Positions 11,015-26,572 of a DNA stretch of 64,000 nt are shown one piece after another. The stretch's first letter is position 1. Each line of letters begins with the position of its first letter. The notes under the pieces are model-generated. The model did not search any database. It saw nothing but the letters and a program-made list of their open reading frames with translations, and was not told where the DNA came from. Origin of the DNA: Fidelibacterota bacterium. GTDB lineage: Bacteria > Fidelibacterota > UBA8477 > JABMPR01. The position numbers and the translations under genes were made by a program. The stretch lies in the NCBI GenBank assembly GCA_018650795.1, contig JABIFG010000058.1, positions 9,497 to 73,496 on the forward strand, read 5' to 3'.

Positions 11015-13606
11015 CTATTTCATTAACACCATCTTTTTACTTACTGAGGAACCATTAGCTGACAAGGTGTATAGGTAGACTCCACTGGGAACATGCTGAC
11101 CTAAGTCATTTGTCGCATCCCAGCTTACCGTATAGTTGCCACCACTCAGATAGCTTGAGGACAAGGTTTTAACTTCCTGCCCTAAGGCATTGTATACCGT
11201 TAAGACAGCATAACCTGATTCAGCCATTGAGAATCCAATCTCTGTATTAGGATTGAAGGGGTTGGGATAGTTCTGGCTCAGAGCATAGGATGTTGGAATC
11301 CCTGGCAATGAGGCAACAGAAAGCGGTTCACAAGACTGTGGGAATGGTAGGTTAGTATCAGTATTGTGCTCACCAAAACAATGCTCATCCAACACGAATG
11401 TTGCAGCAGCATCATCTATCATGAAATCACGATTCTGGGCAAAACCCGATTCGTTATCAAGAGAGTTGATACCATATTTGCATTGCTGTGCCTTTGCCTG
11501 ACCAGCTGTGTAGAGATATGAATAGGTATATTTCAGACCTTCAGTGTCAGTCTGGGTCATTGCCCATTCACCAACACAGGTTACATCATTACCCCAATCC
11601 CACCATTGGCTAAGAACACCATTAATGGTCACACCATTCACTTCAGACCACATTGTGATATCATCAGAACCAGTCTGAGTGTCTATCAGTGTGTCACCTG
11701 CATCCAAAGCGCGGTAAGCAGATGAGATGTCCAGGTTGAATGTCACGCTAACATCCTGAGTGATAATATCATCAGGAGTGACATCAGCGAAATACGCTAC
11801 GGCTTGGAAAATTTCGCCATAGCCATTTTCATCTGAATCAGTTTCATCCCCGGTTGCTGTGAATGAGCGGTTTGGTGAACCTTCCCAGATAGCTTGATCA
11901 ACATCGCCACCAGTAAGGATTACGAATTTGTATTCGAATCCTGAACCAATAGGCACTGCATCAAAGCTGGAAAGATGGGTATAGACATTGGTCTGCTCTG
12001 GATCCAGAGTCATCTGGATAGCGCCACCCCAGTTGCCATAGTTGTCATGGCCACCACGGATAACAATCAAATCACCATTACCTGGATCAAAGTTACCATT
12101 CAGTAACTGAACCGTCATATCTGCCTGAATAAAGACTTCAACATCAGCAGTTCCCACAGGCTCCTGGTTACCATACCATACTGTTGGGAGGATATTTTCG
12201 CCAGCCACTACAGTATACATACGGTTGTCAATACCTTCTGAGGTATCCCAGTTGCTGTTAATCCGGAACTTGTACTCCATTGGACCTGCAGGAACACTAA
12301 AAGTACCTTCATAGATACCGTCAGCATCGCCATCAGTCAACATGTCACCGCCACCCCATTCATTCAGGGTACCAGCTACATCGAGAACATCCGTACCAGG
12401 TACAAATGTACCGAGAGTTGTCTGGAAACTCATGTCAACACTAAATGTGACAGGATTGCCTGGTGTAACCGCAGGTGCCCAACGGGGATCACCAATAGAT
12501 GAGCCACCTTCTCCTGCTCCAATTAAAGGCGATCCCGCCTGTAGGGTTAAATCACCAATGGCGGAATCCACAAAGAGCGGATCAACCTGAATATTATTCG
12601 CACCATGAGTACCGCCTACGGGTGTATCCCCCGCAGCACCATTGTTATACCAATTACAATAATCTACGGCAACAGCCGATGTCGTTGTTCCACCTGTTGT
12701 TTTACAAGGCTCGTCCGCCACGTTTGTGAATGTTGTGTTATTAACATAGGAATCAGTAGCTGCAAATTTGACAACAAAACCATCATGATTCTCACCTGGA
12801 ATCCCGATGTGGTCAAAGGTACTATGATCTATGACCACCTTACCATCTGAAATACCATCCGGATCCTGCATTTTGAGGAATATTGCTGAGTTGGTTGTAT
12901 TCCAGATCGAACTATTTGTAAACTGAAATAAATTCCTGAGTCCCCTATTATTGGCGGAGTGATTAATTTTCCGGCCACCGGTCCCATCAAGATCGTAAAT
13001 GTAACAACCATCAAAAATTAAAGTATCCAGGACACCTGGGAGACCATCTGTAGCGACTTGAACACCATCAATAAAAACACCAGCATTATCGACATAGTCG
13101 ATACCATCAAAGACCATGGAGCCATCGGCCAGGATAAGTGTATCTGGAACTCCGGTGATGCTCATTGTTAGCTGATGGGCATGGTGCATATCTGTGTTAT
13201 AGAACTTCCAGTTCACTCCAATATCGGCCCGGTTACGAAACATGCGTGTTGTTTTTGCTTCCGGTTCTCCATCCATGGTTAGCTCAATATCAGCAATGGT
13301 TAAGGAAGCATAAGTGAAAAATTGAGTTGCCTCCTGAGTTTGTGCTACTGCTGTGTCAGCATTCCAGAGAAAAGAAATCACTGGTTTACTGGCTAGACCT
13401 TCAGCCGCTTTTATGGTGAGTGGTACATAAATGAACAGCGGATCATTGGCGTAGACACCCTCCTGCTCTAGGATCAACCTATCACCTGCTGCTGCTGTGG
13501 CCAGCGCAGCTTTAATGGTATTCTCTCCTGGCTGGACCATAATGTCCGTAGCCATTATTGGTAGCGTCATCGCTATCAACAAAATGCACATTAACATCTT
13601 CTTCAT
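11015..13606 (-). CDS. large secreted multidomain protein: beta-helix-like region, two CBM20-like beta-sandwich modules, type-A T9SS C-terminal sorting domain
   Basis: Signal MKKMLMCILLIAMTLPIMA. CBM20-like blocks VTFSVDM...EYKFRINSNWD...NRMYTV and EYKFVILTGG...GSPNRSF. CTD LSQNYPNPFNPNTEIGF...GVYLYTL...KKMVLMK. Confidence 0.6.
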   Translation of the reverse strand: MKKMLMCILLIAMTLPIMATDIMVQPGENTIKAALATAAAGDRLILEQEGVYANDPLFIYVPLTIKAAEGLASKPVISFLWNADTAVAQTQEATQFFTYASLTIADIELTMDGEPEAKTTRMFRNRADIGVNWKFYNTDMHHAHQLTMSITGVPDTLILADGSMVFDGIDYVDNAGVFIDGVQVATDGLPGVLDTLIFDGCYIYDLDGTGGRKINHSANNRGLRNLFQFTNSSIWNTTNSAIFLKMQDPDGISDGKVVIDHSTFDHIGIPGENHDGFVVKFAATDSYVNNTTFTNVADEPCKTTGGTTTSAVAVDYCNWYNNGAAGDTPVGGTHGANNIQVDPLFVDSAIGDLTLQAGSPLIGAGEGGSSIGDPRWAPAVTPGNPVTFSVDMSFQTTLGTFVPGTDVLDVAGTLNEWGGGDMLTDGDADGIYEGTFSVPAGPMEYKFRINSNWDTSEGIDNRMYTVVAGENILPTVWYGNQEPVGTADVEVFIQADMTVQLLNGNFDPGNGDLIVIRGGHDNYGNWGGAIQMTLDPEQTNVYTHLSSFDAVPIGSGFEYKFVILTGGDVDQAIWEGSPNRSFTATGDETDSDENGYGEIFQAVAYFADVTPDDIITQDVSVTFNLDISSAYRALDAGDTLIDTQTGSDDITMWSEVNGVTINGVLSQWWDWGNDVTCVGEWAMTQTDTEGLKYTYSYLYTAGQAKAQQCKYGINSLDNESGFAQNRDFMIDDAAATFVLDEHCFGEHNTDTNLPFPQSCEPLSVASLPGIPTSYALSQNYPNPFNPNTEIGFSMAESGYAVLTVYNALGQEVKTLSSSYLSGGNYTVSWDATNDLGQHVPSGVYLYTLSANGSSVSKKMVLMK

Positions 13607-13644
13607 ACCTCACTCCTTTGTTTTATTAAAGCTATCATCCGATT

Positions 13645-15252
13645 TTATTGAATTTTAAATGCATAGGCGATGTCACAAGGCTTTTCATCAGGGAAACTAA
13701 TTTCGAGACCTGCGGCTGTTCTTTTCCATTCAATTTTACCAGTATTTCCTAACATCTCAACACTGCTGATTTCCCCTGGAAAATAATCGGACCCCTCGTT
13801 TAATGAATGGACTATAATTTTTCCACTTTCTGGCCAGTTAAGAGTTGTAGCATACAGCGTTTTCCCATCCTTGGATTGGGTAAATCTGATATCCTGGGGT
13901 GAAAATTCCTGGCGATAATTCCAGCCTGGTTTCATCACTCCTTTTTGGGTGGCCTTCATTGTGGCTAGTTTTGTGGGACCTTCTCCGAAGATCTTCCAGG
14001 GTCTGGTACTATAAATAGCTTCCCCATTCACTCGTAGCCATGCACCAATTCCCTGCATAATTTCCTTTTCCTCTTCAGGGATAGATCCATCTCCCTTGGG
14101 GGTCAAGGAAAGCAGGAACACGCCACCACGACTGACCAGATCAATAAGGCTGCGTGTGTGATAATCGGCCTTATCTTTATAAATTTTATTGTGTTCATAG
14201 GCCCAGGGATAGGCAATCGCTCGATCGATGAGAAACCAGGGTTCCACATCCTCGAGCATATCTCGGCCATTTTCATAACTCAAAAGACCAAACTCATCTG
14301 GAAAGTTAAATTTTCCGGCATGCTTGTTTGCCACAACAACTTCCTGTCCGCGGGCATCTGCCTTGTTAAAAAAATGTGCTATGGCTTCCTGGACATAGGA
14401 AACGGGTGGTGTATCATTCTTCATAGACGTGTTGAGACCGTCAAACCAGATAAAGTCGGGTTGATAATTATCAACCACTTCAATAATCTTTGCCCGCCAC
14501 TGGTTTGAGAAATCCTCGCGCGTCGAATGACCATCATGCCAGTAAAAATCGCTGTACTGTGGATCGAAGAGATCAAATTTTTCTCTATCCTCTTCAGTCC
14601 ATTTTTCCATTTTGCCACCAGTAGCAAAACCATAGGTACGTCCATGATGGAATGTAGCAGCAAGTTTCATATCTCCCCTTGCCCTCACTGCCTTCGTTAT
14701 TTCCCCAAAAATATCCCGTTTGGGACCCATATTTTTTGAATTCCAGCGGTTTACCTTACTGTCCCACAATAGAAAACCATCATGATGGACCACGCAGATG
14801 CCCCCAAATTTTGCTCCGGCATCGGCCATGACCTCAACCCACTCCTCAGCATCAAATTTATCAGCAGTGAATTGCGGGATAAGATCGATATAGCCAAAGT
14901 CTTCCGGTTTCCCATAGGTCTCGGTCATGTAGTCATGTATTTCCGGCTTGTTAAACTCGCGTTTGTACATGGATTTGAGAGGTGCAGCGGGACCGCCATT
15001 GGCAACCACAGAATAGATACCCCAATGGGTGTAAACACCAAATTTGGCATCTTTCATCCACTCCGGAATTTCATCTTTAGAAAGAGATTCCCAATTTGCT
15101 TCATAAGGTCCAGTAACCTGTTTTTGGGCAAGCACTGGTTCAGGAATGATGCTCTGTTCCACTTTTTCTGGCGCACAAGATGCAATGATGGCCAGAGACA
15201 AAACAGCTAGAAGCAGGTAGGTGAAGTTATTTTTGATGGACTGCATGATCAC
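13645..15252 (-). CDS. alpha-L-fucosidase, GH29 (tandem paralog 1)
   Basis: KFGVYTHWGIYSV, HHDGFLLWDS, LLSLTPKGDG. Signal-peptide or lipoprotein N-terminus. The start appears to be GTG at 15252 (or ATG at 15246), preceded by AAGAGG. Confidence 0.88.
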   Translation of the reverse strand: MIMQSIKNNFTYLLLAVLSLAIIASCAPEKVEQSIIPEPVLAQKQVTGPYEANWESLSKDEIPEWMKDAKFGVYTHWGIYSVVANGGPAAPLKSMYKREFNKPEIHDYMTETYGKPEDFGYIDLIPQFTADKFDAEEWVEVMADAGAKFGGICVVHHDGFLLWDSKVNRWNSKNMGPKRDIFGEITKAVRARGDMKLAATFHHGRTYGFATGGKMEKWTEEDREKFDLFDPQYSDFYWHDGHSTREDFSNQWRAKIIEVVDNYQPDFIWFDGLNTSMKNDTPPVSYVQEAIAHFFNKADARGQEVVVANKHAGKFNFPDEFGLLSYENGRDMLEDVEPWFLIDRAIAYPWAYEHNKIYKDKADYHTRSLIDLVSRGGVFLLSLTPKGDGSIPEEEKEIMQGIGAWLRVNGEAIYSTRPWKIFGEGPTKLATMKATQKGVMKPGWNYRQEFSPQDIRFTQSKDGKTLYATTLNWPESGKIIVHSLNEGSDYFPGEISSVEMLGNTGKIEWKRTAAGLEISFPDEKPCDIAYAFKIQ

Positions 15253-15261
15253 TTCGACCTC

Positions 15262-16863
15262 TTATTTAATTCTAAACGCGTAAGCTGTGGTGCATGGCTT
15301 TTGCTGAGGAAATATTATTTCCAGACCTTCTGATGTCCTGGACCACTCAATTTTTTCAGAACTGGCCAGCATTTCAACCGAGTTGATCTTTCCAGTGTAG
15401 AGTTCAGAACCTTCTCTGAGCGACGTGACAACAATCTTACCATCTTCAGGCCATTCCAGAGCCGTTGCATAAAGGGTTTTGCCATCTTTTGACTGAGTAA
15501 ATCTAATATCCTGGGAGGTGAGCTTTTTGCGGTAATTCCATCCAGGTTTCAGGGTACCCTTGCCGGTTTTTTTCATGGCTGTCAAATCTGTAGGTCCTTC
15601 ACCATATAATTTCCAGGGGCGGGTATTATATATAGCCTCTCCATTAATTTTTAACCAATTACCAATTCCGGCCATGATCTCTTTTTCCCTCGCAGGGATT
15701 GAGCCATCACCTTTGGGGGTCAGTGACAGCAGGAATATTCCACCGCGACTTACGAGATCGATGAGACTACGTGTATGATATTCTGGTCCATCTCTATATT
15801 TTTTATCGGCTTCATAAGCCCAGGGATAACCAATAGCACGATCGATGAGGAACCAGGGTTGCACATCACCGGCCATATCACGACCATTTTCATAGCTCAA
15901 CAAGCCGAAATCATCTGGGAAATTGAATTTACCACCAGCATTCTTATTGGCGACCACAACTTCTTTGCTCGATGCATCAGCTTTATTGAAAAAATGGGCA
16001 ATTGCATCCTGAACATGTGAAACGGGAGGTGTATCATTTTTCATTGATGTATTCAGACCATCAAACCATAGAAAATCTGGATCGTAATTATCTACCACTT
16101 CTATAACCTTGGCACGCCACTGGTCAGAAAACTCCTCACGGCTAGAATGACCATCATGCCAGTAAAAATCTTTGTATTGGGGATCGAAAAGATCAAACTT
16201 GGATCTTTCCTCTTCGGTCCAGATATCCAGTTTACCGCCTGTGGCAAATCCATAGGTACGACCATGGTGGAAGGTGGCTGCTAATTTCATATCTCCACGG
16301 GCGCGGACTGCTTTGGTAATTTCACCAAAGATGTCTCGCTTTGGTCCCATATTCATTGAGTTCCAACGATTCACTTTTGAATCCCATAGCAGAAAACCAT
16401 CATGATGCACGACGCAGATGCCACCAAATTTGGCTCCGCCATCAGCCATAACATCTACCCATTCCTCTGCATCAAATTTTTCAGCCGTAAACATGGGAAT
16501 GATATCTACATATCCAACATCTTCAGCTTTACCAAAATTTTCGAGATAATGATCGTAGGTTTCCTTTTTACCCTGACCTTCTTTGTAGATTGACTTCAAA
16601 GGAGCACCGGCACCACCTTTGGCGATGACTGAGTAAACACCCCAATGTGTATAGACTCCAAATTTGGCATCTTTGATCCATTCAGGAATGTCATTTTTAG
16701 CCAGTGATTCCCAATTCGGCTCATACCCAACCATAGAAACACTCGAAGGGGTTGCTGGAGCTACTGGAGCCGGTTCTGGGGTAGTTTTAGGGGGCATACA
16801 GGCTGTTAGCAATATCAGGGCTAGAATAGATGCAATAGCGACTCTGGCGATTGTTGATCTCAT
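15262..16863 (-). CDS. alpha-L-fucosidase, GH29 (tandem paralog 2)
   Basis: About 75% identical to the product of 13645-15252 along the whole length (DAKFGVYTHWGVYSV..., HHDGFLLWDSKVNRWNS...). Lipoprotein-type signal ...LLTAC. Confidence 0.88.
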   Translation of the reverse strand: MRSTIARVAIASILALILLTACMPPKTTPEPAPVAPATPSSVSMVGYEPNWESLAKNDIPEWIKDAKFGVYTHWGVYSVIAKGGAGAPLKSIYKEGQGKKETYDHYLENFGKAEDVGYVDIIPMFTAEKFDAEEWVDVMADGGAKFGGICVVHHDGFLLWDSKVNRWNSMNMGPKRDIFGEITKAVRARGDMKLAATFHHGRTYGFATGGKLDIWTEEERSKFDLFDPQYKDFYWHDGHSSREEFSDQWRAKVIEVVDNYDPDFLWFDGLNTSMKNDTPPVSHVQDAIAHFFNKADASSKEVVVANKNAGGKFNFPDDFGLLSYENGRDMAGDVQPWFLIDRAIGYPWAYEADKKYRDGPEYHTRSLIDLVSRGGIFLLSLTPKGDGSIPAREKEIMAGIGNWLKINGEAIYNTRPWKLYGEGPTDLTAMKKTGKGTLKPGWNYRKKLTSQDIRFTQSKDGKTLYATALEWPEDGKIVVTSLREGSELYTGKINSVEMLASSEKIEWSRTSEGLEIIFPQQKPCTTAYAFRIK

Positions 16864-16897
16864 TTCATTTCCTCAATTTCATAATTGGTTTCAGTAT

Positions 16898-18442
16898 TTA
16901 TTTCTTTTTTTTCTTAATTCTTTGCTTGTTGCTGACTTTCCACCCTCCAAGAGTGGGGCTCCACTTGCTCAGGGGTTCAAAATCAGGATCACCATAGTCT
17001 CCCCCACTATGGCTTTTCTCAGCGGAGGCTAAAAAGCGTTTCAATTCAGTTTTCAATTTTTGGGCATGGTCCGGATGATCGGCTATGATATTGTTTTCTT
17101 CATATCGATCCTCGTACAGATCGAATAGCATATCTTCTTCACCCGTATCGGAGTAGTTCGTTAGAAATTTATATCGATCATCAATCATTCCTGCGGTTGG
17201 AGAACCGTACATAGAACCTTTTCCCGACTGAAATCGAAAGGGGATTGGTTTGCTACGTTTGGATTCATCCCCAGACAGAAGCGGCATAATGTTTAGTCCA
17301 TCAAGGGCTCGGTGGTCTGGAAGATCAACTTCAAGCGTCTCCATAATGGTTGGGAAATAATCCAGTGTGGAAGCAGGTCTTTCCATGATGCTTCCCTGCT
17401 TAGCTGGACCAGCTGGCCAATGCAGAAAGGCAGGTGAGCCGACTCCCCCTGAAAAGAGGCTCCGTTTTCTACCTCTGTGTCCCCCAGTAACTCCGGGTCT
17501 ACCCTTTTCAGGACCATTATCACTGCAGAACCACAACATGGTGTCATCCAGGACTCCCAGGTTGGTAAGTTCAGTTTTTAATCTGCCGACTTGATCATCA
17601 AGTGCTGTAATGCAGCCATAATAATTCTGCTCAAGTTCTGTGTACTGAGAGTACATCGCCTGGTAGTCAGGACCGGCTTTGACGGGTGCATGTGGTGCGT
17701 GGAACCAGATCACGGTAAAAAATGGTTTCTCTGCCTCAACTGACTGATTAACAAAAGGCAGGATGCGATCCATCATGATGCGACTGTCATCACCGTTAAC
17801 GTTATCTATAACGCGCTCGCCATTGTGCCAGTACGGATTTTCTGTCGTTGCAGCTTTCTCCCCTGTTGGTCCGTAAGGATCCCAGGTGGCTACAGCATGA
17901 TGTGTGACAAAATGTTCATCGTACCCAAACCATTCTGGTAGGGCGAGATGTTTATCCCCTGAATTTTTACCGGTGTATTTGCGATTCGGGCTACCCAAAT
18001 GCCACTTCCCAAAGTGGCCGGTAGTATAGCCAGCCTGTTTGAGCATTTCAGGAAGCGTAACTTCCTGTGTTGGCAAGGCTCCCTGATTGGCTTTCCATAT
18101 CCCGTATCTAAAATAATGACGTCCGGTGAGACAGGTTGCTCGAGTTGGAGAACACACTGGAGCTCCTGAATAAAAACGGTCCAGACGAACACCTGAGTTG
18201 GCAAGATTATCCAGATGAGGTGTTTTGATAATGGTATTTCCATTCCAGCCAACATCACCCCAGCCCATATCATCTGTCATCATTAAAATTATGTTTGGGC
18301 GCTGCTTTTTTTGTGGAGATGTTATTGTGCTGGTGAGCGCAGAGCTACCACCACAGGCTACAAGACTGCCAGCCGCGATAATTCCTGCCATAAATTCTCG
18401 GCGAGTCATTGATTTGTGTTCAGTTTTTAGATGGCGTGACAT
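16898..18442 (-). CDS. S1-family sulfatase, Tat-secreted, with a C-terminal poly-lysine tail
   Basis: Tat motif MTRREFMAGIIAAG; MMTDDMGWGD...CSPTRATCLTGRHY; ends ...SNKQRIKKKKK. Alternative start at M12 (position 18409). Confidence 0.88.
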   Translation of the reverse strand: MSRHLKTEHKSMTRREFMAGIIAAGSLVACGGSSALTSTITSPQKKQRPNIILMMTDDMGWGDVGWNGNTIIKTPHLDNLANSGVRLDRFYSGAPVCSPTRATCLTGRHYFRYGIWKANQGALPTQEVTLPEMLKQAGYTTGHFGKWHLGSPNRKYTGKNSGDKHLALPEWFGYDEHFVTHHAVATWDPYGPTGEKAATTENPYWHNGERVIDNVNGDDSRIMMDRILPFVNQSVEAEKPFFTVIWFHAPHAPVKAGPDYQAMYSQYTELEQNYYGCITALDDQVGRLKTELTNLGVLDDTMLWFCSDNGPEKGRPGVTGGHRGRKRSLFSGGVGSPAFLHWPAGPAKQGSIMERPASTLDYFPTIMETLEVDLPDHRALDGLNIMPLLSGDESKRSKPIPFRFQSGKGSMYGSPTAGMIDDRYKFLTNYSDTGEEDMLFDLYEDRYEENNIIADHPDHAQKLKTELKRFLASAEKSHSGGDYGDPDFEPLSKWSPTLGGWKVSNKQRIKKKKK

Positions 18443-18477
18443 GGAATAATCTTATCCCTCATTCACTTTAGGTATAA

Positions 18478-18498
18478 TTGGTATACTAATATATACCA
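18478..18498. promoter_or_regulatory. Inverted repeat TGGTATA-N6-TATACCA about 40 bp upstream of the sulfatase start; instance of the recurring GTATA/TATAC operator-like motif
   Basis: ttggtatactaatatatacca. Related palindromes at 31148-31165, 38811-38820 (TAGTATACTA), 42731-42739 and 52869-52887 (AAGTATActtaaTATACTT), all upstream of transcription-unit starts. Confidence 0.3.
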
Positions 18499-18534
18499 TA
18501 ACAAGGTGTATTCAAGGGAATTCGGGGGGTTTCA

Positions 18535-18650
18535 GGTAAGGAGACTGAGCTTGTCGAAGTCGGTTGGTTATCACCCTATGGTAATGGACATTTCGTCCTT
18601 CGACTCCGCTCAGTATGACAGCTCAATGTCCGAGGAATCTTATAGCTTCA
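18535..18650. repeat. Copy of the dispersed intergenic element (CTGAGCTTGTCGAAG ... CGACTCCGCTCAGTATGAC)
   Basis: Shares the CTGAGCTYGTCGAAGT core and a CTCAG(G/T)ATGAC end with the copies at 6156, 38886 and 57978. Confidence 0.4.
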
Positions 18651-20157
18651 GGGTATATCCTAGCATAATGCGATCGTTTCTATCAGTGATATAATGCATG
18701 CTGGTTGCGAAGTAATCCAGATATTTTAGTTGTTGCCAGCTATAAGCAATATCAAAAGTACCCCAGAGCATGTCGATGGCTATCCCACCTGAATAGATAT
18801 CCTGTTCCGGTCCTCGATCGATAAATGGCGATCGCCAGCCATGAAATTCACGGCTACCTGTTTGATAACCACCCGCAAGCTTTACCCTGCTATGGATTTT
18901 GTAAACAATTCCTAATTTCATGGTCAATACGTCAACCCAGGGTTGGTAACCATCTAGTGTTTGACTGGTATCACCCAGGCTGATTTTTGCTTCCGATAAC
19001 GGATTCCAAATCAAATCGAAGTAAACCTCCAATTGATCTTTTGGTTTTACAGCTATGCCAAAACTGGATTTTACCGGTAACGCGATATCCATTGATATTC
19101 CGCTTGTATCCAGCACAAAAGCTGAATCATCAGGTTGAATAAACCAATCTGCATCAGAATATTTACGAGTCATCGTGGCAGGTAAATCAAACTGAAATCC
19201 TGCCGAAAAATCAGGGGTATGAAACTGTAGTGACAAATCTAGAATATTTGCCGACCAATCACTATCCGCAGTATTAACTTTAGCAGCAGTTGTGTCATCA
19301 TAATAAAAGGCAAAACCACCATTGGGACGCCACTTATAATCTCCATAGTGTGCCCATGATATATTGTCATTTGTTGTGCCGGACAGTGATTTCATGCCAA
19401 TACCAACATTCGCCCATTCAAAAACTTCGACAGCCAGTGCTGCCTGAAGCACAGCCATATCGCCTTTCCGCTCTCGGACATATGTAAACTGGTGCAAATC
19501 CAGGGTATCGCCATCAGTATTCAGACCTGGATCAGCCCAATCCCCGATAACAGGATCGAGATAGGCTTCATTCTGATCATAATCGTATATATTCTGGTTT
19601 CGATAAGCCAGGGCTAATGCAATCGTCCGTCCACCAAAAATCGCAAGGGGTAAACCTAGACTCACATTTGAAATACCTGAGAGTTCCAACTTCTGTTCCC
19701 AGTCCCGTGCTTTATAATCCCAGAAATTCAAACCAGTATCATTCACCTTGATATCATCAGGTGTGAGCAAATTAAATAGGGAATCCACCCAAATACCGTT
19801 GTTACTATGTACAGGTTGGTAAGTTTTATCTATAATACGCAGAATAAGGGGGTCAACCCTATCTTCCATCATGACCATATTTTCAAATTGATTTCGATTC
19901 GAGATATGACCATTAAATTGAAATTGAATTCCTTCCAAACCGACTAAACCGGCTGGATTACGAAAGATATCATTCAGAGTTCCATCACCTGCCACTCCCG
20001 CGCCAGCTTTTGCCAGAGTCCAGGGGGTTTCGGTTTCAAGGTTTGCCATCCCATGCAAGAGAATCACCTCTCCATTCCCCTGCCCCAAAAGCGAGAGAGG
20101 GAAAAAGGCAATGCTTGCCAGAGTTAATATTACAGTGATTGATTTAAATTTATTCAT
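18640..20157 (-). CDS. long PorV/PorQ-like (FadL-like) T9SS-associated outer-membrane beta-barrel, 505 aa
   Basis: Signal peptide. N-terminal block AKAGAGVAGDGTLNDIFRNPAGLVGLEGIQFQF shares the xxA(R/K)xxxxGxxxxxxxxxNPAGL signature with the shorter PorV-like proteins and with its 514-aa paralog at 44802-46346. Ends in alternating barrel-type strands ...LGYTLKL. Confidence 0.5.
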   Translation of the reverse strand: MNKFKSITVILTLASIAFFPLSLLGQGNGEVILLHGMANLETETPWTLAKAGAGVAGDGTLNDIFRNPAGLVGLEGIQFQFNGHISNRNQFENMVMMEDRVDPLILRIIDKTYQPVHSNNGIWVDSLFNLLTPDDIKVNDTGLNFWDYKARDWEQKLELSGISNVSLGLPLAIFGGRTIALALAYRNQNIYDYDQNEAYLDPVIGDWADPGLNTDGDTLDLHQFTYVRERKGDMAVLQAALAVEVFEWANVGIGMKSLSGTTNDNISWAHYGDYKWRPNGGFAFYYDDTTAAKVNTADSDWSANILDLSLQFHTPDFSAGFQFDLPATMTRKYSDADWFIQPDDSAFVLDTSGISMDIALPVKSSFGIAVKPKDQLEVYFDLIWNPLSEAKISLGDTSQTLDGYQPWVDVLTMKLGIVYKIHSRVKLAGGYQTGSREFHGWRSPFIDRGPEQDIYSGGIAIDMLWGTFDIAYSWQQLKYLDYFATSMHYITDRNDRIMLGYTLKL

Positions 20158-20170
20158 ACTTATATCCAGC

Positions 20171-21163
20171 CTATCTCATCACATAGCTCAGACTAAAACG
20201 CTGAACGTATTGCAAGAAGTCATCATAATCATTATATGCATAATCGAATTTAAAATTTCCCAGGGCTACCCCAGCTCCCAGACTGAGTCCCTCAGTGAGA
20301 TAATTGATTTTATATCCTCCCCGCAAGAACAGTCTTTCTTTCAAAGCCCATTCTGCACCCACGTTATACTGTTGATCATAATCCCTGGGGGCTAGCAGAT
20401 CTGCTGCCAGAGTGAGTCTTTGAAACGAATTTGTCCCCATCAAGCCACCTTCTGGACCAAAGCATTCAGTGGCGAATCCTAAAATAAGTACCTGAGGTGC
20501 TGAAAATCCCTTCTCTTCAAATACGATGTCATCTCCAAAATGACGAACAACTGCACTGGTTCGTAGTGTTCTCCAGCCGGAGCGATAGAGCACACCACCA
20601 TCAAAAAGGATTTGATCGTCCTTGGAATAAATGAGGTCTTCCTGCACAAATTTGGCAGTGATACCAAAACTGAATTTATCTGTTACAGCTCGGGCATAAG
20701 TCAGACCCAACATGAGATGATTAGGAGAAAAGTAATCTTGAGAAGTGGCAAATGCCTGGTATTCCGCCAGACTGGAGACATTGGTTGTATGGAGTATTTT
20801 ACCAATATCATTGTATTGATACTGTATGGCAAACGTGCCTAACCGGGTTCCGAAGAGTGCAACACCTCCCATATTTCGGACATCTGCAAAATAGTTATAC
20901 ATAGACATAGACAATTCATATTTCCCTGCGTCAGTTAGCCCGGCAGGATTGTAATATACGCCATCAGCATTATCAGCCACTGCCGTAAAAGCTTCGCCCA
21001 TACCGTTGGCTCTGGCATCCGGTTTTACCTTCAGGAATTGAAATGCAGTTGTCCCCTCTTTAGTCGTCTGAGCATCAATTGTTGAGAGTGCTAACAGCAG
21101 ACACAAGGGCAAGACTATTGATTTGATTCTCTTCAATTTCATCATTCTTTCTCCTTGGGTCAC
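20171..21163 (-). CDS. PorV-like T9SS-associated outer-membrane beta-barrel (PorV/PorQ family), about 325 aa
   Basis: TAFQFLKVKPDARANGMGEAFTAVADNADGVYYNPAGLTD is the characteristic PorV-type N-terminal motif. C-terminal aromatic-rich beta-strands ...QRFSLSYVMR. Paralog at 46348-47433. Likely start MMKLKRIK (21145). Confidence 0.55.
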   Translation of the reverse strand: MTQGERMMKLKRIKSIVLPLCLLLALSTIDAQTTKEGTTAFQFLKVKPDARANGMGEAFTAVADNADGVYYNPAGLTDAGKYELSMSMYNYFADVRNMGGVALFGTRLGTFAIQYQYNDIGKILHTTNVSSLAEYQAFATSQDYFSPNHLMLGLTYARAVTDKFSFGITAKFVQEDLIYSKDDQILFDGGVLYRSGWRTLRTSAVVRHFGDDIVFEEKGFSAPQVLILGFATECFGPEGGLMGTNSFQRLTLAADLLAPRDYDQQYNVGAEWALKERLFLRGGYKINYLTEGLSLGAGVALGNFKFDYAYNDYDDFLQYVQRFSLSYVMR

Positions 21164-21165
21164 AG

Positions 21166-23445
21166 CTAGCGAATAATTACAAACTTTGTCATGGTCTGCT
21201 GTCCATCTGGTGTCTGAATGGCAACAAAATACACACCTGGAGCCAGGAGCATGTTATTCTCATTCACGAGATTAAAAGTGAGCGATCCACTCTCAGAGTT
21301 TTCATGCTCAATGCTTTGTACTTTCTGACCTGCAAAACTATAGACACGAATTGAGCATTTTTCAGGAAGTCCAAAAATACTGACTGCATTTGCAAGTGAG
21401 ACATTTTGAAAGCCACTTTCCAGAATAAAGGGATTTGGGACAATAAAAATGTTCTCAAGATCCCCTTCGGGACCAATATCCCTGCGATGTTGAGTCATAT
21501 TTGTTTTACCACTCTGAAAACCATTTACATCCCGCGTAGTAACTGAATAAAAGGCCACATCTGAAAAGGCGAAATCGATGTCATCATCTATATATTCGTA
21601 GATATTTTCAGAATTGACCTCCCCCGCTGAAATGGCGACTAATCGTTTCCAGGGACCAAGACGATTAAAACTTCTCCAGATATAAAATGAGTCCAAGGCA
21701 GCAGAGGAATGAGTAAAATCTTCAACTGCTCTTGACCAGGTAATATGGATATTGGCATCCTCATCGTTACTCACCTTAAGACCTGGTGCAGGAACTGGAA
21801 CATAGACATCATACACGCCATCTGGCTCCGTCCAATCCGGCCAACAGACGACTGAATCCTCCGCCCAGAGTGAATCATGTTCGATGTCCCATCCGGTATA
21901 GGCTTTCCAAGCCTCTCGAGCAACGTCCTGAACTGAGATAACCCCAGTTTCTGCATTGACATAATCGGGATATCCAAAAGTATCCAAATATCTGAAGGTG
22001 CTATCTCCTACTGTGAGTTCAGCATTAATATCAGGCGCTACACCCCAAAGGTCTGATTTCTGACCACCTCCAAATACCCTTTTACCTGGATCTGAACCAT
22101 ATCCAACGACCTGGGCAAAACTGAAATGAAGAATATCACCCCTGTTAATAGTATAGGGACCACAAACAAATGACGAGGCAGGCGCTTCTGCACTTTTAGG
22201 TTTATACTTGGGTCTTCCAACCCAAAACATTGGATGCTCATTTGGATCCGGTGCGTCAAGTTCTGGAAATTTACCTTGGGCCCGGCTATGTGTCTTATAA
22301 TGTGGTTTGTTGATGAGCGATGTAGAAACAAACCAACCAGCATTCTGGATAATCCCCCAGGGCTGCTTGATAGTTAAATTCTCATCCCATTCAAAGTCAG
22401 CTGCATGTTGAGCATATTCCATTGTTGTCAGATGAAAGGTCGTATCATTTGTATCAAGAACTGTCAGATGCTCCCTATCCCAATGAAGCGCTGTATGCCC
22501 CGCAGCCTGTGGTGCCAGCAATCCACCACCATTCAAACCAGTAGACGAAAACTCCCAAAAAAGATCCTCATCCGGTTCAGGATGATATGGCTTGGAGTGA
22601 TCCTGCTGGGTGCTAATGCTCTGGCAATAAAACATGGTGTAGTCTGTATCGAAACTGTTGTATACATCACCCCTGAAAATTCCTGGTTTCCAGTACCAGG
22701 AACCAAAGGTTCTCTGAAAGCTCATCATGTTAGGTGGTATAGCCGTATGGAATGCAAACAAGGCATCTACATAGGTATCTACTGAGTCCTGCTCTATAGT
22801 GTTTTCATCATAGTCCGTATTGCCCGTAAATTCCAGTTCATACTCATGGAAAATGATATCATCCAGCATTGGATAGCTGTATTGACGAGTGACCCTCGTA
22901 ACTGTCATACCCACACTGGTAGCAAATCGAGTGTGAATGAGCTGTTCAGCCTCATTTGGATCGAAATCAGGATTGAGACTACCATCTTCAAGCAGAGGAT
23001 AGTTGGTTTCTTTCCAGAATTCAAGTGGCCAGCACCAAACTTCATATTCCATCTCTGGACCGCCCGAGCCCACCATTCCAGCGAATGAAAAGTGTTTTTG
23101 ATCAACTCCCAGTTTTCCTGGATGGTTCACACCAATATGGATACCACCTCCCAGACCGTTGTGTTGACCATAATATTCAATATTATCAATAACAGTCCTT
23201 GACCAGGCTGGCCATTCGGTCATAGGTGTATTGGTTGATTCAATTCCATTATTTTTGTAGGGGGCTACGAAGACTCCCGTGTTATAAAAAGTCTCATGGA
23301 GGGTACCGCGATCATGGACCAAACGCTCACGTTGAGCCCATAAGCCAGAAGTAATACTCATCAGCAATATGACATATAATACCAATTTTAAGCGATTTGA
23401 CATAGCAGTCTCAGTTGAACTTTCCTGATATATATAGTTCATCAT
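21166..23445 (-). CDS. large secreted protein of unknown function with a type-A T9SS CTD (unrecognised family; paralog of 47430-49793)
   Basis: Signal (MSNRLKLVLYVILLMSITSGLWAQ, probable start 23403). Conserved blocks shared with the paralog: EWPxxSxTVxxxIxYxGQHNxxGGGIHIGxNxxxK, HFSFxGxVGxGGPE and GGLLAPQAAG. CTD IFIVPNPF...GVYFVAIQT...KFVIIR. Confidence 0.6.
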   Translation of the reverse strand: MMNYIYQESSTETAMSNRLKLVLYVILLMSITSGLWAQRERLVHDRGTLHETFYNTGVFVAPYKNNGIESTNTPMTEWPAWSRTVIDNIEYYGQHNGLGGGIHIGVNHPGKLGVDQKHFSFAGMVGSGGPEMEYEVWCWPLEFWKETNYPLLEDGSLNPDFDPNEAEQLIHTRFATSVGMTVTRVTRQYSYPMLDDIIFHEYELEFTGNTDYDENTIEQDSVDTYVDALFAFHTAIPPNMMSFQRTFGSWYWKPGIFRGDVYNSFDTDYTMFYCQSISTQQDHSKPYHPEPDEDLFWEFSSTGLNGGGLLAPQAAGHTALHWDREHLTVLDTNDTTFHLTTMEYAQHAADFEWDENLTIKQPWGIIQNAGWFVSTSLINKPHYKTHSRAQGKFPELDAPDPNEHPMFWVGRPKYKPKSAEAPASSFVCGPYTINRGDILHFSFAQVVGYGSDPGKRVFGGGQKSDLWGVAPDINAELTVGDSTFRYLDTFGYPDYVNAETGVISVQDVAREAWKAYTGWDIEHDSLWAEDSVVCWPDWTEPDGVYDVYVPVPAPGLKVSNDEDANIHITWSRAVEDFTHSSAALDSFYIWRSFNRLGPWKRLVAISAGEVNSENIYEYIDDDIDFAFSDVAFYSVTTRDVNGFQSGKTNMTQHRRDIGPEGDLENIFIVPNPFILESGFQNVSLANAVSIFGLPEKCSIRVYSFAGQKVQSIEHENSESGSLTFNLVNENNMLLAPGVYFVAIQTPDGQQTMTKFVIIR

Positions 23446-23454
23446 AGTAGTCCC

Positions 23455-26379
23455 TTAAAAAGTCCACTGAACGCCAAGGCGAAAATAGCGAGGAGCGTTT
23501 TGATAGTAGCGAATGTGCTGGGGGAAATCCATGGGAGAATAATCACTTTCCACCATAACAGCATCGATGTCGCCTGCCTCATATTCTTCAATTGCTTCAA
23601 AGTCCTTAAATAAGGAATAGGCATAAACCTTTTCGTTCAAGACATTAAAGATAGTGAGGTTAAGGTTGAGTTTCTGTTTCCCAAAACGCATGTTCTTAGC
23701 AATTTTCATCTGAAGATTATTCTCGTCAGGACCGACTTTATTGAATTTTGTTCCAATTGCTTCTTCAGGACCATAGTACGTATAGGGTCTTCCCTCTTGA
23801 AAAGTGAATTTCGTATTGACTGAGATACCAGAGATAGGTTGTACTCCAAAGATCTGGGGTCCGAACCCGCTGGGAGTTTTATAGCCGATATTTGTGATAA
23901 TCCTGTTTCGGCGATTATAGTTCATGATCACATCTTCAGGTTCCGGCGCGCGATTATTCTCATGATCAAAATCATAGCGCCCATCTGAACCTTCCTTGTA
24001 TGATAGGGTAGCGTCAAAGGGTGTGGGGTTCTTGCCAATTGCTTTCTGGAAATTATAGCGAACGCTCATATTAAAGTTGCCCTGTTTTCTAACAAGACTC
24101 AAACTGAAGCCCTTGATATTGGCATAATCAAGATTGGCAAATCCCTTATAATCAGATCCGGTTGAATCCTCATAGAAGACCGTCTGCACCAGATTTTTCA
24201 CATCCTTATAATAGGTCGAAATATTTAACCTGAAACCAAAGGGTAGTCCCTGAACCAGACCAAAATCATAGGCATTGGTTCGTTCTGGTTTCAATCGGGC
24301 ATTACCCAATTCATCAACCTCATTGCCTGTAATATCATAATAGCGACGATAGATTTTGTCAAAATTGGGACGCTGAGTAAAACTTCCATAGTTAACATGA
24401 ATCACCGAGCGATCATTGACCGGATAAGAAAAGCCCAACCTGGGTTGCAGGTGGTAAACCAACTCGGTTTTGGCAGTTTCTGCTAATTCAGGATCGTTAA
24501 AAGGTCCACGTAAACCTGGTGGTAAACTCGCATCATAATTCGGATTAGCAGTCGGATGGAAAAGATTTGTAAAATATTCATAGTTATAATTATAAAAGTC
24601 AAAACGTAGACCAATATTTGCAACCAGACCCTCGAATTCCATCTTGTCCTGGACATAGAAAGCTCCCTCGTAGGGTTTCTCATGATATGTCAGGATTTGA
24701 GCATTTGGTGAACTCGCCGATGCAGACCGCTCCGTACGCAGATCATAGCTAAATAGTTGCCATCCAGCTTTTATCAAATTTCCCATGTTGAGTTGTTTAT
24801 TCCAGGATCCATAAAAGCGCAGGGTGCTGGTCTCCTCAGTAGTATAGCTATTTTCCAGGACCTTATTATTCAGATCACCAGGTAACCAGATGGGCGTATT
24901 AAAATCGCTCCCAAAATTTGAACCCATCCATTCAGGATCACGTACAGGATATCTGTGAGCATAGTCCGTGGTAAAACTCCTCAGGTTCATCTCCATATAG
25001 GACTTTTTACTAAATATGTGCTCCCAGCGAAGACCATAATCTGCTGCCTGGTTTCTATCACGGTGAGGGCCATAATCAGGATTGAAAATTTTAACATACC
25101 TATTCCCAACACTCCAATTGAGCTTATCGGAGGCAAAGTAATTCAGGGAAATGATTAGTTTGTTTGAGAAATCCGGTGCCCATGAAAAATTGGACATGAG
25201 CTGTCTTGATTTATTTGGAAAAGCGGTCAAGACTTTGGTTCCATCTACCTGCTGTCTGACTGCCAGAAAGATTCTGGTCTTGTCAGACACGGGTCCACCA
25301 GTTGAAAGATCAATGCGGTAATCCGTCACTTCATCATACGACAATCCTATTTGTCTGGCAAAAGCCAGGTATTGAGCCCGAGCAAACTGAGCCACTTTAA
25401 GACTGTCCTCATGGGTGGCATTTTCGAGATCCACATAATTAGCGTAGGAGCCATTGCTATTCCAGTTAATCAATGATTGACTGGAATCCTGCTGACTGAC
25501 CTGAAGCCAATTCTCTGCGTCCCCTCCAAACAGATTGTGAGGTCTGACATCTTCGCTCCAGGCAGATCCACCCCAGTGATTATAGTGCGGTAATGTTCCG
25601 GAGTAATTCACCTTGGTACTCCAACGCTTTCCGCCTGTTTTGGGGACCATATTGATTACCCCTGACTGAGCATTTCCATACTCAGCCGAGAAACCTGAGG
25701 TAAACACTTCCACCGCCTGAAGACCAGAGGTCATCGGCTTAAAGGAAGCTTTATTGGATAATGGGTTTACTATACTAGCTCCACCGATCAGATATTGAGT
25801 TTCGGCTTCACGACCTCCACGAACATTATCTTCAACAATATCAGCATTGAGATCAATAATATCCTGGACATCGTAGATTCCAGCCACTTCCTCAAGTTCT
25901 GACATGATATAGTTCTGTTTAGTAGCGGTGAGATCTTTTTGAATCATGTCAGATCGGAAGGCGGTTACCAGAATATCATCCAGGAGTAATGATTCGGAAC
26001 TCAAGTCAAAAAATATTTCAGTAGTTTTGTCTACGTCTATGCGCACCATTTCAATCTTTTTTGACTGGTAGCCCATCATGTGGGCTTCGACATTGTAAAA
26101 ACCAGGCTCAAGATTAAGGATATAGAAACGACCATCAAGATCTGTGGCAGCTCCAAGAGGTCTACTCAATGGTTCGATTTCTCCACCGACCCAGCGCTCA
26201 TTAATAATAACGTTGGCACCAATCAGTCCCTTATCAGTTCCAGTATCACGAACAGCTCCAGAAATTTTACCCGTTTGATCTGCCATTACTGAGGATTGAA
26301 TGATCAGAGCCATCAGTATGGCGCTTTTTATTCGTTTTATCATTTTTGGGGATTGTGGCATAAAGCCTCTCCTTAGCAT
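23455..26379 (-). CDS. TonB-dependent receptor (carboxypeptidase-regulatory-like N-domain, plug, 22-strand-type barrel)
   Basis: GKISGAVRDTGTDKGLIGANVIINE...DGRFYILNLEPGFYNVEAHMMGYQ; plug ...TSGFSAEYGNAQSGVINMVPKTGG; terminal YFRLGVQWTF. Paralog at 49828-52746. Confidence 0.8.
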   Translation of the reverse strand: MLRRGFMPQSPKMIKRIKSAILMALIIQSSVMADQTGKISGAVRDTGTDKGLIGANVIINERWVGGEIEPLSRPLGAATDLDGRFYILNLEPGFYNVEAHMMGYQSKKIEMVRIDVDKTTEIFFDLSSESLLLDDILVTAFRSDMIQKDLTATKQNYIMSELEEVAGIYDVQDIIDLNADIVEDNVRGGREAETQYLIGGASIVNPLSNKASFKPMTSGLQAVEVFTSGFSAEYGNAQSGVINMVPKTGGKRWSTKVNYSGTLPHYNHWGGSAWSEDVRPHNLFGGDAENWLQVSQQDSSQSLINWNSNGSYANYVDLENATHEDSLKVAQFARAQYLAFARQIGLSYDEVTDYRIDLSTGGPVSDKTRIFLAVRQQVDGTKVLTAFPNKSRQLMSNFSWAPDFSNKLIISLNYFASDKLNWSVGNRYVKIFNPDYGPHRDRNQAADYGLRWEHIFSKKSYMEMNLRSFTTDYAHRYPVRDPEWMGSNFGSDFNTPIWLPGDLNNKVLENSYTTEETSTLRFYGSWNKQLNMGNLIKAGWQLFSYDLRTERSASASSPNAQILTYHEKPYEGAFYVQDKMEFEGLVANIGLRFDFYNYNYEYFTNLFHPTANPNYDASLPPGLRGPFNDPELAETAKTELVYHLQPRLGFSYPVNDRSVIHVNYGSFTQRPNFDKIYRRYYDITGNEVDELGNARLKPERTNAYDFGLVQGLPFGFRLNISTYYKDVKNLVQTVFYEDSTGSDYKGFANLDYANIKGFSLSLVRKQGNFNMSVRYNFQKAIGKNPTPFDATLSYKEGSDGRYDFDHENNRAPEPEDVIMNYNRRNRIITNIGYKTPSGFGPQIFGVQPISGISVNTKFTFQEGRPYTYYGPEEAIGTKFNKVGPDENNLQMKIAKNMRFGKQKLNLNLTIFNVLNEKVYAYSLFKDFEAIEEYEAGDIDAVMVESDYSPMDFPQHIRYYQNAPRYFRLGVQWTF

Positions 26380-26547: not shown

Positions 26548-26572
26548 ATTTAATCTAGAACCTCATCTCAAG

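Follow-up and report, generated by a model that had tools for sequence, protein, structure and literature searches.

The five palindromes of the form GTATA-N5-TATAC found in leader regions of this locus are probably the operators of a locus-encoded, autoregulated and sugar-responsive repressor. The window, the whole 64,000-nt stretch that was analysed, carries its genes on the minus strand throughout and belongs to a fucoidan-type utilisation locus that extends over more than 100 kb in a Candidatus Neomarinimicrobiota (Marinimicrobia) bacterium. Marinimicrobia are uncultured and abundant in oxygen-poor waters. To our knowledge, nothing is known of their gene regulation, and a literature search combining Marinimicrobia with fucoidan returned no relevant match. 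Fucoidan itself is among the most recalcitrant algal polysaccharides and is relevant to marine carbon storage. The locus encodes sulfatases, GH29 fucosidases, T9SS proteins and TonB receptors without a SusD partner, and the sequence covered for the window's species amounts to ~100 kb, nearly all within this locus. One of the receptors, TonB receptor 2, belongs to a family that is widespread in Marinimicrobia, KSB1, Ignavibacteria and Calditrichia, and identity among its homologues falls from a 100% cluster directly to 44%.

An earlier note on this DNA had described a palindromic core in five leaders, and all five of its sequences are present, each with an exact N5 15-mer (sites S1 to S5 in the table). 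Two of its coordinate ranges were off by one base, TGGTATACTAATATATACCA lying at 18479-18498 and AAGTATACTTAATATACTT at 52870-52888. At its third and fourth sites the core was recognised and the element under-described: both are full 15-bp palindromes, whose other half lies inside the longer block that the note had seen upstream of two propeller paralogs. That block is indeed common to S3 and S4, which precede paralogous BNR genes. The proposed placement upstream of transcription-unit starts also agrees with the positions found, as every site is found 5' of a gene, at a distance of 29-125 nt from its ATG. Pooled half-sites read GTATAYT on both arms and give an extended consensus, the 7-1-7 palindrome GTATAYT-n-ARTATAC. 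At S1, the N6 palindrome TGGTATACTAATATATACCA overlaps the canonical N5 site, resulting in three half-sites. Upstream of the window, the same contig carries two additional exact sites, giving seven in the window's species, and none of the ten arm positions varies among these. The full GTATAC hexamer arm flips relative to the gene, with S1a, S3 and S4 in one orientation and S2 and S5 in the other.

Palindromic sites, predicted promoters, inferred transcription units and the candidate regulator gene (window coordinates unless prefixed by a locus handle)
Feature	Position	Strand	Sequence or elements	Context
S1, canonical N5 15-mer	18472-18486			29 nt from site end to ATG of sulfatase, 16898-18442(-)
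S1, composite	18472-18496		GTATAATTGGTATACTAATATATAC	Three half-sites
S1, predicted promoter	18488-18515		-35 TTGAAT 18510-18515; -10 TATATT 18488-18493	Consensus scan
S1, inferred unit	11015-18442	-	Sulfatase, two GH29 fucosidases, 863-aa T9SS protein	Terminator hairpin in 10901-11014
S2	31148-31162		GTATACTAATTATAC	72 nt before ATG of 1500-aa T9SS beta-helix protein, 26573-31075(-)
S2, predicted promoter	31147-31174		-35 TTGTCT 31169-31174; -10 TATACT 31147-31152	Distal half-site used
S2, inferred unit	26573-31075	-	1500-aa T9SS protein	Strong terminator hairpin near 26510-26545
S3	38804-38818		GTATATTTAGTATAC	100 nt before ATG of BNR-propeller gene, 37336-38703(-)
S3, predicted promoter	38812-38839	-	-35 TTGGAA 38834-38839; 16 nt; -10 TATACT 38812-38817	-10 is the promoter-proximal half-site
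S3, inferred unit	31360-38703	-	BNR propeller, rhaM-type mutarotase, CBM/T9SS protein, GH141-like protein, sulfatase, small cupin	3' end approximate; compare gene calls in orthologous locus L020
S4	42724-42738		GTATATTTAGTATAC	112 nt before ATG of BNR/PKD T9SS gene, 41037-42611(-)
S4, predicted promoter	42732-42759		-35 TTGCTT 42754-42759; -10 TATACT 42732-42737	Consensus scan
S4, inferred unit	41037-42611	-	BNR/PKD T9SS protein	Terminator hairpin 40972-41010
S5	52872-52886		GTATACTTAATATAC	125 nt before ATG of TonB-dependent receptor 2, 49828-52746(-)
S5, predicted promoter	52880-52907		-35 TTGTTA 52902-52907; -10 TATATT 52880-52885	Consensus scan
S5, inferred unit	42850-52746	-	TonB-dependent receptor 2, 787-aa protein, 361-aa protein in PorV-like position of the cassette (no Pfam hit), FadL-like protein, BNR/dockerin protein	
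Candidate regulator gene	~81,859-82,956	-		Outside the window
Copy at regulator gene	L029:8728		GTATATTCGGTATAG	
Copy at regulator gene	L109:5479		GTATATTAGGTATAG	
Copy at regulator gene	L083:3024		GTATGTTAGGTATAG	48 nt before start codon
Copy at regulator gene	L076:7086		TTATACTCAATATACTGAGTATAG	60 nt before start codon

The motif stands out sharply from its background. Five exact matches occur in 3,822 nt of intergenic DNA, against a mean of 0.005 in 3,000 dinucleotide-preserving shuffles, none of which contained more than one. All 5-mer/gap/5-mer dyads in 12 intergenic regions were also enumerated without bias. GTATA-N5-TATAC ranked joint first, present in six of the 12, and shared this rank with two sub-patterns that overlap it at the same sites; the maximum reached by any dyad in 200 shuffles was three. 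The mismatch spectrum is bimodal, with six exact, one one-mismatch and 21 two-mismatch matches. An exact match at 45685 lies within the coding sequence of the FadL-like gene, and both of its arms fail the 7-1-7 consensus; it is read as chance. The GTATAC at 26529 belongs to the stem of a terminator hairpin and was discounted as a site.

Across related species, with protein identities of 70-93%, the 15-mers are identical within intergenic DNA that has otherwise diverged. In species B and C, where the orthologue of the 1500-aa protein is 73% and 70% identical, they are 100% conserved; spacer identity outside them is 26-43% for S2 and S3 and 61% for S1. The S1 15-mer is identical in species B together with its flanks (L020:22594), and the S2 15-mer is identical with diverged flanks in both species B (L020:9915) and species C (L011:3535). 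Species B also conserves S3 (L020:2076), S4 (L002:19982) and S5 (L002:9861). At S3, conservation starts at the -35-like TTG and continues for ~8 nt beyond the site; identity in the remaining spacer is ~40%. The N5 motif is absent from seven alginate-type Marinimicrobia loci that lack the regulator described below and were found via homologues of TonB receptor 2 (L013-L019).

The earlier note saw no regulator gene in the window, correctly, and proposed searching the flanking genome for a transcription factor. Such a search leads to a 365-aa candidate regulator at the head of the fucoidan locus, ~17.9 kb past the window's right end. In the window's own species the protein is represented by a precomputed GntR+Peripla_BP gene call on the source contig, ending at L024:46 and followed immediately by the first sulfatase in the same orientation, and by 14 C-terminal residues from L024, LEPKLIVRKSCCNN, which match the regulator of species B. 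Its position at the locus head is the same in species B and in loci L109, L083 and L076. Pfam places a GntR domain at residues 12-74 and LacI-type binding domains (Peripla_BP_1/3/4) at residues 88-362. [quoted passage not shown] Because the recognition helix, SLITIK, is without the arginine used by AraR and NagR, no specificity rule ties the regulator to the motif.

In a set of 80 metagenome loci containing sulfatase relatives (0.93 Mb in total), homologues of the regulator are confined to L029, L083 and L076. Exact motifs are found in the same three loci and, outside them, once, in L103, inside a sulfatase coding sequence (Fisher p = 5e-5), which leaves no intergenic exact motif in any locus without the regulator. 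Moreover, a slightly degenerate copy of the motif precedes the start codon by 52-65 nt in all four available regulator genes, with distances of 60 and 48 nt given for the L076:7086 and L083:3024 copies. The earlier note had left open whether the palindrome is a lineage-specific promoter element or the operator of a dimeric regulator. The latter is now well supported by the regulator at the locus head, its co-occurrence with the motif across species and the copies at the regulator genes. The former has no support on its own, and what survives of it is that one half-site often coincides with a predicted -10 hexamer.

From these sequence features we infer physical binding, repression rather than activation, the promoter positions and the effector. 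A regulator dimer would bind GTATAYT-n-ARTATAC with one winged helix per half-site, the half-sites being one helical turn apart. At most sites, one half-site would be the -10 hexamer (TATAYT) of a predicted sigma-70-type promoter, and because of this coincidence a bound repressor would keep RNA polymerase out. The repressor would be released when a sugar derived from fucoidan, with L-fucose or a fuco-oligosaccharide as the most plausible candidates, binds the C-terminal domain. Release would de-repress no fewer than seven transcription units, of which five lie in the window and two upstream of it. The regulator would also repress its own gene via a weaker operator with the distal half-site TATAG, and the model expects GTATAnTnnGGTATAG ~50 nt before the regulator ATG in the window's species. 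Such a regulator would not explain control of the whole locus, because several units carry no site, namely receptor cassette 1, the 807-aa receptor and everything below 18 kb in the window.

One half-site coincides with the predicted -10 hexamer at many sites. Counted over 17 sites, a TTG precedes the motif by exactly 21 nt in 5, compared with 0-2 at any other offset, which gives the arrangement TTGnnn-16-TATAYT. The -35-like TTG is conserved in orthologous spacers between species. On these predictions, the palindrome is not itself a promoter but overlaps one. Not every site has a convincing -35-like element: at S2 in species B, and at the TonB-receptor sites in species C, D and E, it is weak or lies in the wrong place. 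The operator may therefore be placed differently with respect to the promoter from site to site, and activation may occur at some promoters. Downstream of S4, a sigma-70-like pair with a stronger score, ATAACA-17-TATAAT (42713-42685), is not conserved in species B and is probably not the promoter. The TAnnTTTG element of the Bacteroidetes-type promoter (-33 TTTG / -7 TAnnTTTG) was absent at all five sites, from 40 nt ahead of the site down to the start codon.

Several other readings of the palindromes were weighed. A lineage-specific core-promoter element, recognised by a housekeeping or alternative sigma factor and marking promoters, is improbable even though the sites lie at transcription-unit starts, each half-site (G+TATAYT) resembles a -10 hexamer and many sites have a TTG at the right distance. 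Sigma-70 elements are directional (-35 TTGACA, -10 TATAAT, 16-18 bp apart), whereas the arms here are symmetric, 10 bp apart and flip, and sigma-70 recognition would have no use for another -10-like hexamer on the opposite strand at a distance of 10 bp. At least three units of the locus that follow strong terminators are at least 3-4 mismatches away from the motif in their upstream spacers (26380-26572 before cassette 1, 10901-11014 before the 807-aa receptor and 40909-41036 before the 612-aa BNR gene). The motif is also absent from other Marinimicrobia loci and from the spacers that precede two genes outside the locus, those for the metallophosphatase and LacI; it tracks the regulator across loci, and its ten invariant arm positions exceed the usual constancy of a promoter element. 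The palindromes might also be the operators of a different regulator, either an unlinked global one or the LacI-family protein encoded ~8 kb past the window's left end (L005:21800 onward). This, too, has a low probability, comparable to that of a core-promoter element. The LacI-family gene does adjoin the locus on the source contig, and the cognate role of the GntR/LacI-type candidate is a proposed one. The LacI-family gene is, however, missing from that position in two assemblies with identical locus genes (L007 and L008) and has no site in its own upstream region, and it was rejected as the cognate regulator on these grounds. LacI-family operators are even-length palindromes with a central CG, while the site here is odd-length with an AT-rich centre (7-1-7). 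Against any different regulator, the GntR/LacI chimera co-occurs with the motif and carries a copy upstream of its own gene in four species.

An RNA-level element, that is, a 5' leader hairpin acting as an attenuator, processing site or protein-binding stem-loop, is very unlikely. The palindrome could fold if transcribed, and leaders of 29-125 nt follow it, but the predicted hairpins are weak (-1.7 to -7.9 kcal/mol), and four of the five sites equal their shuffles (z -0.6 to -1.4), with S5 marginal (z -2.35). Loop bases are conserved like stems with no compensatory changes seen, an Rfam search of the window gave no match, and the conserved island extends upstream to the -35-like TTG and not downstream. 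A chance product of AT-rich intergenic DNA, or a paralogous duplication of promoter regions, has almost no probability. Although the intergenic DNA here is AT-rich and S3 and S4 share a longer block upstream of paralogous genes, the flanks of S1, S2, S5 and the two upstream sites have no similarity to those of S3 and S4. The shuffles, the dyad enumeration and the conservation of sites at 70% protein identity already refute it. Known operators were also compared. A CRP/FNR-type site was rejected on its spacing, which is N5 in every canonical site versus 5-N6-5 (TGTGA-N6-TCACA) or 5-N4-5 (TTGAT-N4-ATCAA), and no cNMP-binding or Crp-type gene is present among the called genes of the locus. The only literature match for GTATAC operators, the CcdA/ccd operator, belongs to an unrelated ribbon-helix-helix system.

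The operator reading, which we favour, yields a defined operator (GTATAYT-n-ARTATAC), a candidate cognate sensor-repressor and a testable regulon. These could be used to predict fucoidan-responsive genes in metatranscriptomes, and the compact sugar-responsive switch is testable heterologously. Mechanistically, palindromic operators placed over the -10 hexamer and bound by an autoregulated local repressor are textbook, here in an unstudied lineage. If the repressor reading is true, control of a polysaccharide locus in a non-Bacteroidetes member of the FCB group falls to a classical one-component repressor in place of the Bacteroidetes-type systems. A broader proposal is possible, although we stop short of calling it probable: a single AraR-architecture repressor would sense a fucoidan breakdown product and gate the locus of more than 100 kb, with its T9SS-secreted enzymes and SusD-less TonB/PorV-like/FadL-like uptake cassettes, through half-sites that are -10 hexamers. 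This would be the first regulatory circuit to be defined in the Marinimicrobia (SAR406). It would also represent a control mode distinct from the Bacteroidetes paradigms, and the divergent recognition helix, with leucine for a conserved arginine, would define a new DNA-specificity class among GntR regulators.

Bacteroidetes polysaccharide loci are normally controlled by hybrid two-component systems, SusR-like regulators or ECF sigma/anti-sigma pairs, none of which appears in the Pfam assignments across ~100 kb of this locus. The best match to the DNA-binding domain is to NagR/YvoA (4U0Y/4WWC, E = 2e-13), which with DasR belongs to the HutC subfamily of GntR regulators. Like the proposed regulator, these proteins are dimeric repressors of sugar-utilisation genes that act on palindromes; their effector domain has the UTRA/chorismate-lyase fold, whereas that of the candidate is LacI-type. 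The dre consensus, roughly TGGTCTAGACCA, also appears to differ from the motif described here. FucR of Bacteroides thetaiotaomicron is a GntR-family, autoregulated, L-fucose-responsive repressor of fucRIAKUP (PMC3878776). It would be comparable with the proposed regulator as a repressor of fucose utilisation from the same superphylum, and differs in that its regulon is a single catabolic operon rather than a polysaccharide-degradation locus.

AraR of Bacillus subtilis has the same GntR plus LacI/GalR-type architecture and nearly the same length (362 aa compared with 365 aa). The candidate's DNA-binding domain aligns to the AraR N-terminal domain (4EGY, E = 7e-13) and its C-terminal domain to 3TB6 (E = 1e-27). 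The operator signature of the GntR family is (N)x-GT-N(0-15)-AC-(N)x (PMC1950556), and the palindromic operators of both systems fit it as GT-Nx-AC. AraR binds palindromic boxes at several promoters and a single box at its own gene (PMC1950556), an arrangement that may have a parallel here in the sites 29-125 nt before the start codons of seven units and in those at the regulator gene, the promoter positions being consensus predictions. The AraR box, ATTTGTACGTACAAAT, is 16 bp long, whereas the motif here is of odd length (15 bp) with an AT-only core and no GTAC core. Pairs of in-phase boxes ~40 bp apart, as used by AraR, were not seen here; some sites have a third half-site 9-10 bp away. In the recognition helix, the SRHTIR of AraR, with its critical R45, corresponds to SLITIK, with leucine in place of R45. 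Because the GTAC core is missing and R45 is replaced, the candidate is judged to be no orthologue of AraR and to share its architectural class only. AraR serves an arabinan regulon in Firmicutes, whereas the repressor proposed here would serve a fucoidan-type regulon in Marinimicrobia.

A recurring GTATA-N5-6-TATAC palindrome had been reported in five leader regions of the window, and all five quoted sequences are found there. The recurrence is real, but the pattern was too loosely described, since all five regions carry an exact 15-bp GTATA-N5-TATAC (S1-S5). The third and fourth sites, quoted incompletely, are full palindromes with their second arm in the reported ‘shared block’, while the N6 palindrome noted at the first site (18479-18498) is present but overlaps the canonical N5 site (18472-18486); S1 has three half-sites. 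The gene-like ORFs of at least 150 aa in the window are all on the minus strand, with three short plus-strand ORFs nested in longer minus-strand ones, so each site is upstream of a gene start. By dinucleotide-preserving shuffling, 0.005 exact sites are expected in the window's 3,822 nt of intergenic sequence, against five observed. When all 5-mer/gap/5-mer dyads are enumerated, GTATA-N5-TATAC is found in 6 of 12 intergenic regions (shuffle maximum, 3) and ranks joint first with two dyads that are overlapping sub-patterns of the same sites. Counted by number of mismatches, the matches form a bimodal distribution: 6 are exact, 1 has a single mismatch and 21 have two. The sixth exact match, at 45685, is intragenic and does not meet the extended consensus, and a GTATAC at 26529 is part of a terminator stem.

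Positions of sites, genes and other elements
Feature	Position	Detail
S1 (start)	window 18472	exact 15-mer
S2 (start)	window 31148	exact 15-mer
S3 (start)	window 38804	exact 15-mer
S4 (start)	window 42724	exact 15-mer
S5 (start)	window 52872	exact 15-mer
Esterase site	L024:15183	GTATACTGAATATAC; exact; outside window, upstream side; 37 nt before SASA esterase gene
Sulfatase site	L024:3912	GTATACTGAGTATAC; exact, fully symmetric; outside window, upstream side; 38 nt before sulfatase gene
Regulator gene	~window 81,859-82,956	same strand as first sulfatase; ends L024:46; 365 aa, GntR + Peripla_BP
Regulator gene in L029	L029:8796-9893	
Motif before regulator gene	L029:8728	GTATATTCGGTATAG
Motif before regulator gene	L109:5479	GTATATTAGGTATAG, with third half-site
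Motif before regulator gene	L083:3024	GTATGTTAGGTATAG
Motif before regulator gene	L076:7086	TTATACTCAATATACTGAGTATAG
Uptake cassette	window 18640-26379	
Uptake cassette, paralogous	window 44802-52746	
Spacer upstream of cassette 1	window 26380-26572	
Spacer upstream of 807-aa receptor	window 10901-11014	
Spacer upstream of 612-aa BNR protein	window 40909-41036	
cupin_2 gene	window 31360-31695	approximate; ~111 aa
rhaM-type mutarotase gene	window 36950-37300	approximate; ~115 aa
Fur-box-like palindrome	window 31272-31286	TGATAATTTTTATCA
REP/MITE-like elements	window 6115-6315, 18500-18639, 38850-39000, 57950-58030	
LacI-family gene	L005:21800-22238	~7.4-7.8 kb left of window position 1
Radical SAM/SPASM fusion gene	L029:6467-8590, L083:789-2870, L109:3337-5340	

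The sites are conserved between species. In the nearest named genome, Candidatus Neomarinimicrobiota bin BS150m-G71 (species B), the 15-mers of S1-S5 and of the sulfatase site are identical, spacer bases included, at orthologue identities of 73% (the 1500-aa protein) and 93% (receptor 2). The S2 15-mer is also identical in species C (locus L011; orthologue 70% identical), and over the three species its 15 positions are invariant, whereas the distal flanks are 26-37% identical. Around S3, the island conserved with species B comprises a -35-like TTG, the site and ~8 nt more, the remaining spacer being ~40% identical. Site turnover between species nonetheless occurs: in species C a TonB receptor is preceded by a one-mismatch site that is missing from its counterpart in the window, and the esterase site has one mismatch in species B. 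Two other kinds of element share these spacers. A Fur-box-like 7-1-7 palindrome, which differs from the classical TGATAATnATTATCA by one mismatch, separates the small cupin gene from S2 and is conserved in species B (L020) and not in species C. GC-rich REP/MITE-like hairpin elements (cores GAGCTTGTCGAAG / CTTCGAC..GCTC) occur downstream of genes in several spacers and, in contrast to the operator islands, diverge fast between species.

When both arms are pooled over 17 sites, the half-site reads (a/t)(a/t)a-GTATA-(C/T)-T, and hence the operator has the form GTATAYT-n-ARTATAC, a 7-1-7 palindrome with a -10-like hexamer, TATAYT, within each arm. The motif is preceded by a TTG at a distance of exactly 21 nt in 5 of the 17 sites and of 22 nt in 2 others (0-1 at other offsets); this TTG is conserved in orthologous spacers and yields a predicted promoter TTGnnn-16/17-TATAYT. 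At S2 it is the distal arm that has the better -35 candidates (TTGTCT-16 in the window, TTGCAT-17 in species C). From this TTG spacing and the hexamers in the arms, we infer that the operator would overlap either the -10 region or the start of transcription.

The window holds part of a fucoidan-type utilisation locus by its Pfam assignments, which include GH29 fucosidases, numerous sulfatases, GH141-like beta-helix proteins and BNR propellers with type IX secretion C-terminal domains. Its source contig is ENA ERZ27246008:k141_25944 (115.6 kb), on which it occupies record positions 9010-73010. Its two paralogous uptake cassettes each encode a TonB-dependent receptor with a CarboxypepD_reg N-terminus and no SusD partner, a ~760-790-aa protein without a confident Pfam match, a PorV-like protein and a FadL/Toluene_X-like protein. 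Other Marinimicrobia carry this cassette in alginate-type loci, and receptor homologues are present also in Ignavibacteria, KSB1 and Calditrichia; the cassette may represent a way in which FCB bacteria outside the Bacteroidetes import glycans independently of SusCD. Under the 150-aa ORF cut-off, small cupin_2 and rhaM-type mutarotase genes are conserved in species B and C. Sites of the window's species were scored over ~100 kb of its genome, nearly all within the locus; two further exact sites lie in L024, a flank of the window on its source contig, and none occurs in the 26 kb leftwards of window position 18,000, ABC sugar transporter and neighbouring LacI-family gene included. The operator is missing from the upstream spacers of three units preceded by strong terminator hairpins, namely receptor cassette 1, the 807-aa receptor and the 612-aa BNR protein, where the best matches have 3-4 mismatches and no obvious promoter motif is common to all; read-through or another regulator are possibilities for their control.

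The window encodes no transcription factor, as had been reported, and the suggested check of the flanking genome locates a GntR + Peripla_BP gene ~17.9 kb past its right end, directly upstream of the locus's first sulfatase. The 14 C-terminal residues readable on the source contig, LEPKLIVRKSCCNN, match the protein of species B, which has the same regulator-sulfatase arrangement; the full sequence was taken from L029, a locus of species B or a close relative. There, a GntR winged helix (residues 12-74), closest to NagR/YvoA and the AraR N-terminal domain, precedes a LacI-type binding domain (88-362), closest to PurR, RbsR and the AraR C-terminal domain. The recognition helix YDVSLITIKRALSDLI (residues 44-60) is conserved among regulators as YDVSLITIK(R/K)ALSDLI, consistent with one motif common to them. 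In L029, L083 and L109, the gene directly upstream of the regulator gene, at the head of the locus, encodes a radical SAM/SPASM protein that resembles anaerobic sulfatase maturases and carries a PPIase/SurA-like domain fused at its N terminus, the L029 copy also having a C-terminal SEC-C motif; farther upstream in L029 are genes for ATP sulfurylase, an arylsulfotransferase-like protein and a sodium:solute symporter.

Regulator and motif co-occur. Among 80 metagenome loci (0.93 Mb) of sulfatase relatives, regulator homologues are found only in L029 (100%), L083 (69%) and L076 (66%), and exact motifs only in these three, plus one inside the L103 sulfatase coding sequence (Fisher p = 5e-5); seven alginate-type Marinimicrobia loci have neither. 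In all four species readable there, a slightly degenerate motif precedes the regulator gene, 52-65 nt before the start codon (60 in the L076 copy, 48 in the L083 copy). The remaining sites in those species stand before genes of the kinds that carry sites in the window's species, namely the gene that follows the regulator and those for sulfatases, T9SS proteins and TonB receptors, the last with tgGTATATTAAGCATACca and tgGTATGTTTAGCATACca. The motif also fits the GT-Nx-AC signature of GntR-family operators (PMC1950556). The regulator would repress its targets until a fucoidan-derived sugar releases it, and the weaker TATAG-type site at its own gene may confer partial autorepression.

Of the two readings in the earlier note, a lineage-specific promoter element alone is disfavoured. 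A pure promoter element would not explain why the site is symmetric or why its full hexamer flips orientation relative to the gene; its presence is also patchy, the post-terminator units and other Marinimicrobia loci being without it, and strictly associated with the regulator. The Bacteroidetes -7 motif was looked for and is absent. Also unlikely is that the palindrome is the operator of the neighbouring LacI protein, whose gene on the source contig comes past the ABC sugar transporter, after a metallophosphatase gene. This gene is not conserved at that position, and its own upstream region lacks the site; in L007 and L008, assemblies with identical locus genes, unrelated genes replace it, which marks a variable left boundary of the locus there. 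An RNA hairpin fits poorly too, since hairpins predicted at the sites are weak and, for the most part, do not exceed those of shuffled sequence in stability, and Rfam gives no match.

An operator of the GntR-LacI chimera would resemble the AraR and NagR systems, in which a one-component, sugar-responsive GntR-type repressor acts on several promoters and on its own gene through palindromic boxes. Judged by its domains, the regulator has the chimeric architecture of B. subtilis AraR (PMC1950556). However, the operator here has odd length and lacks a GTAC core, and the recognition helix carries a leucine, conserved in 4/4 regulator sequences, in place of the arginine of AraR (VSRHTIRKA) and NagR (ISRMTVRQA), which is reported to be critical for AraR binding (PMC1950556). 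Because both the box and this residue differ, the regulator is, by sequence comparison, not an AraR orthologue. The mechanism itself is not new; the value lies in proposing, for the first time, a concrete regulon with its operator for a fucoidan locus of an uncultured phylum.
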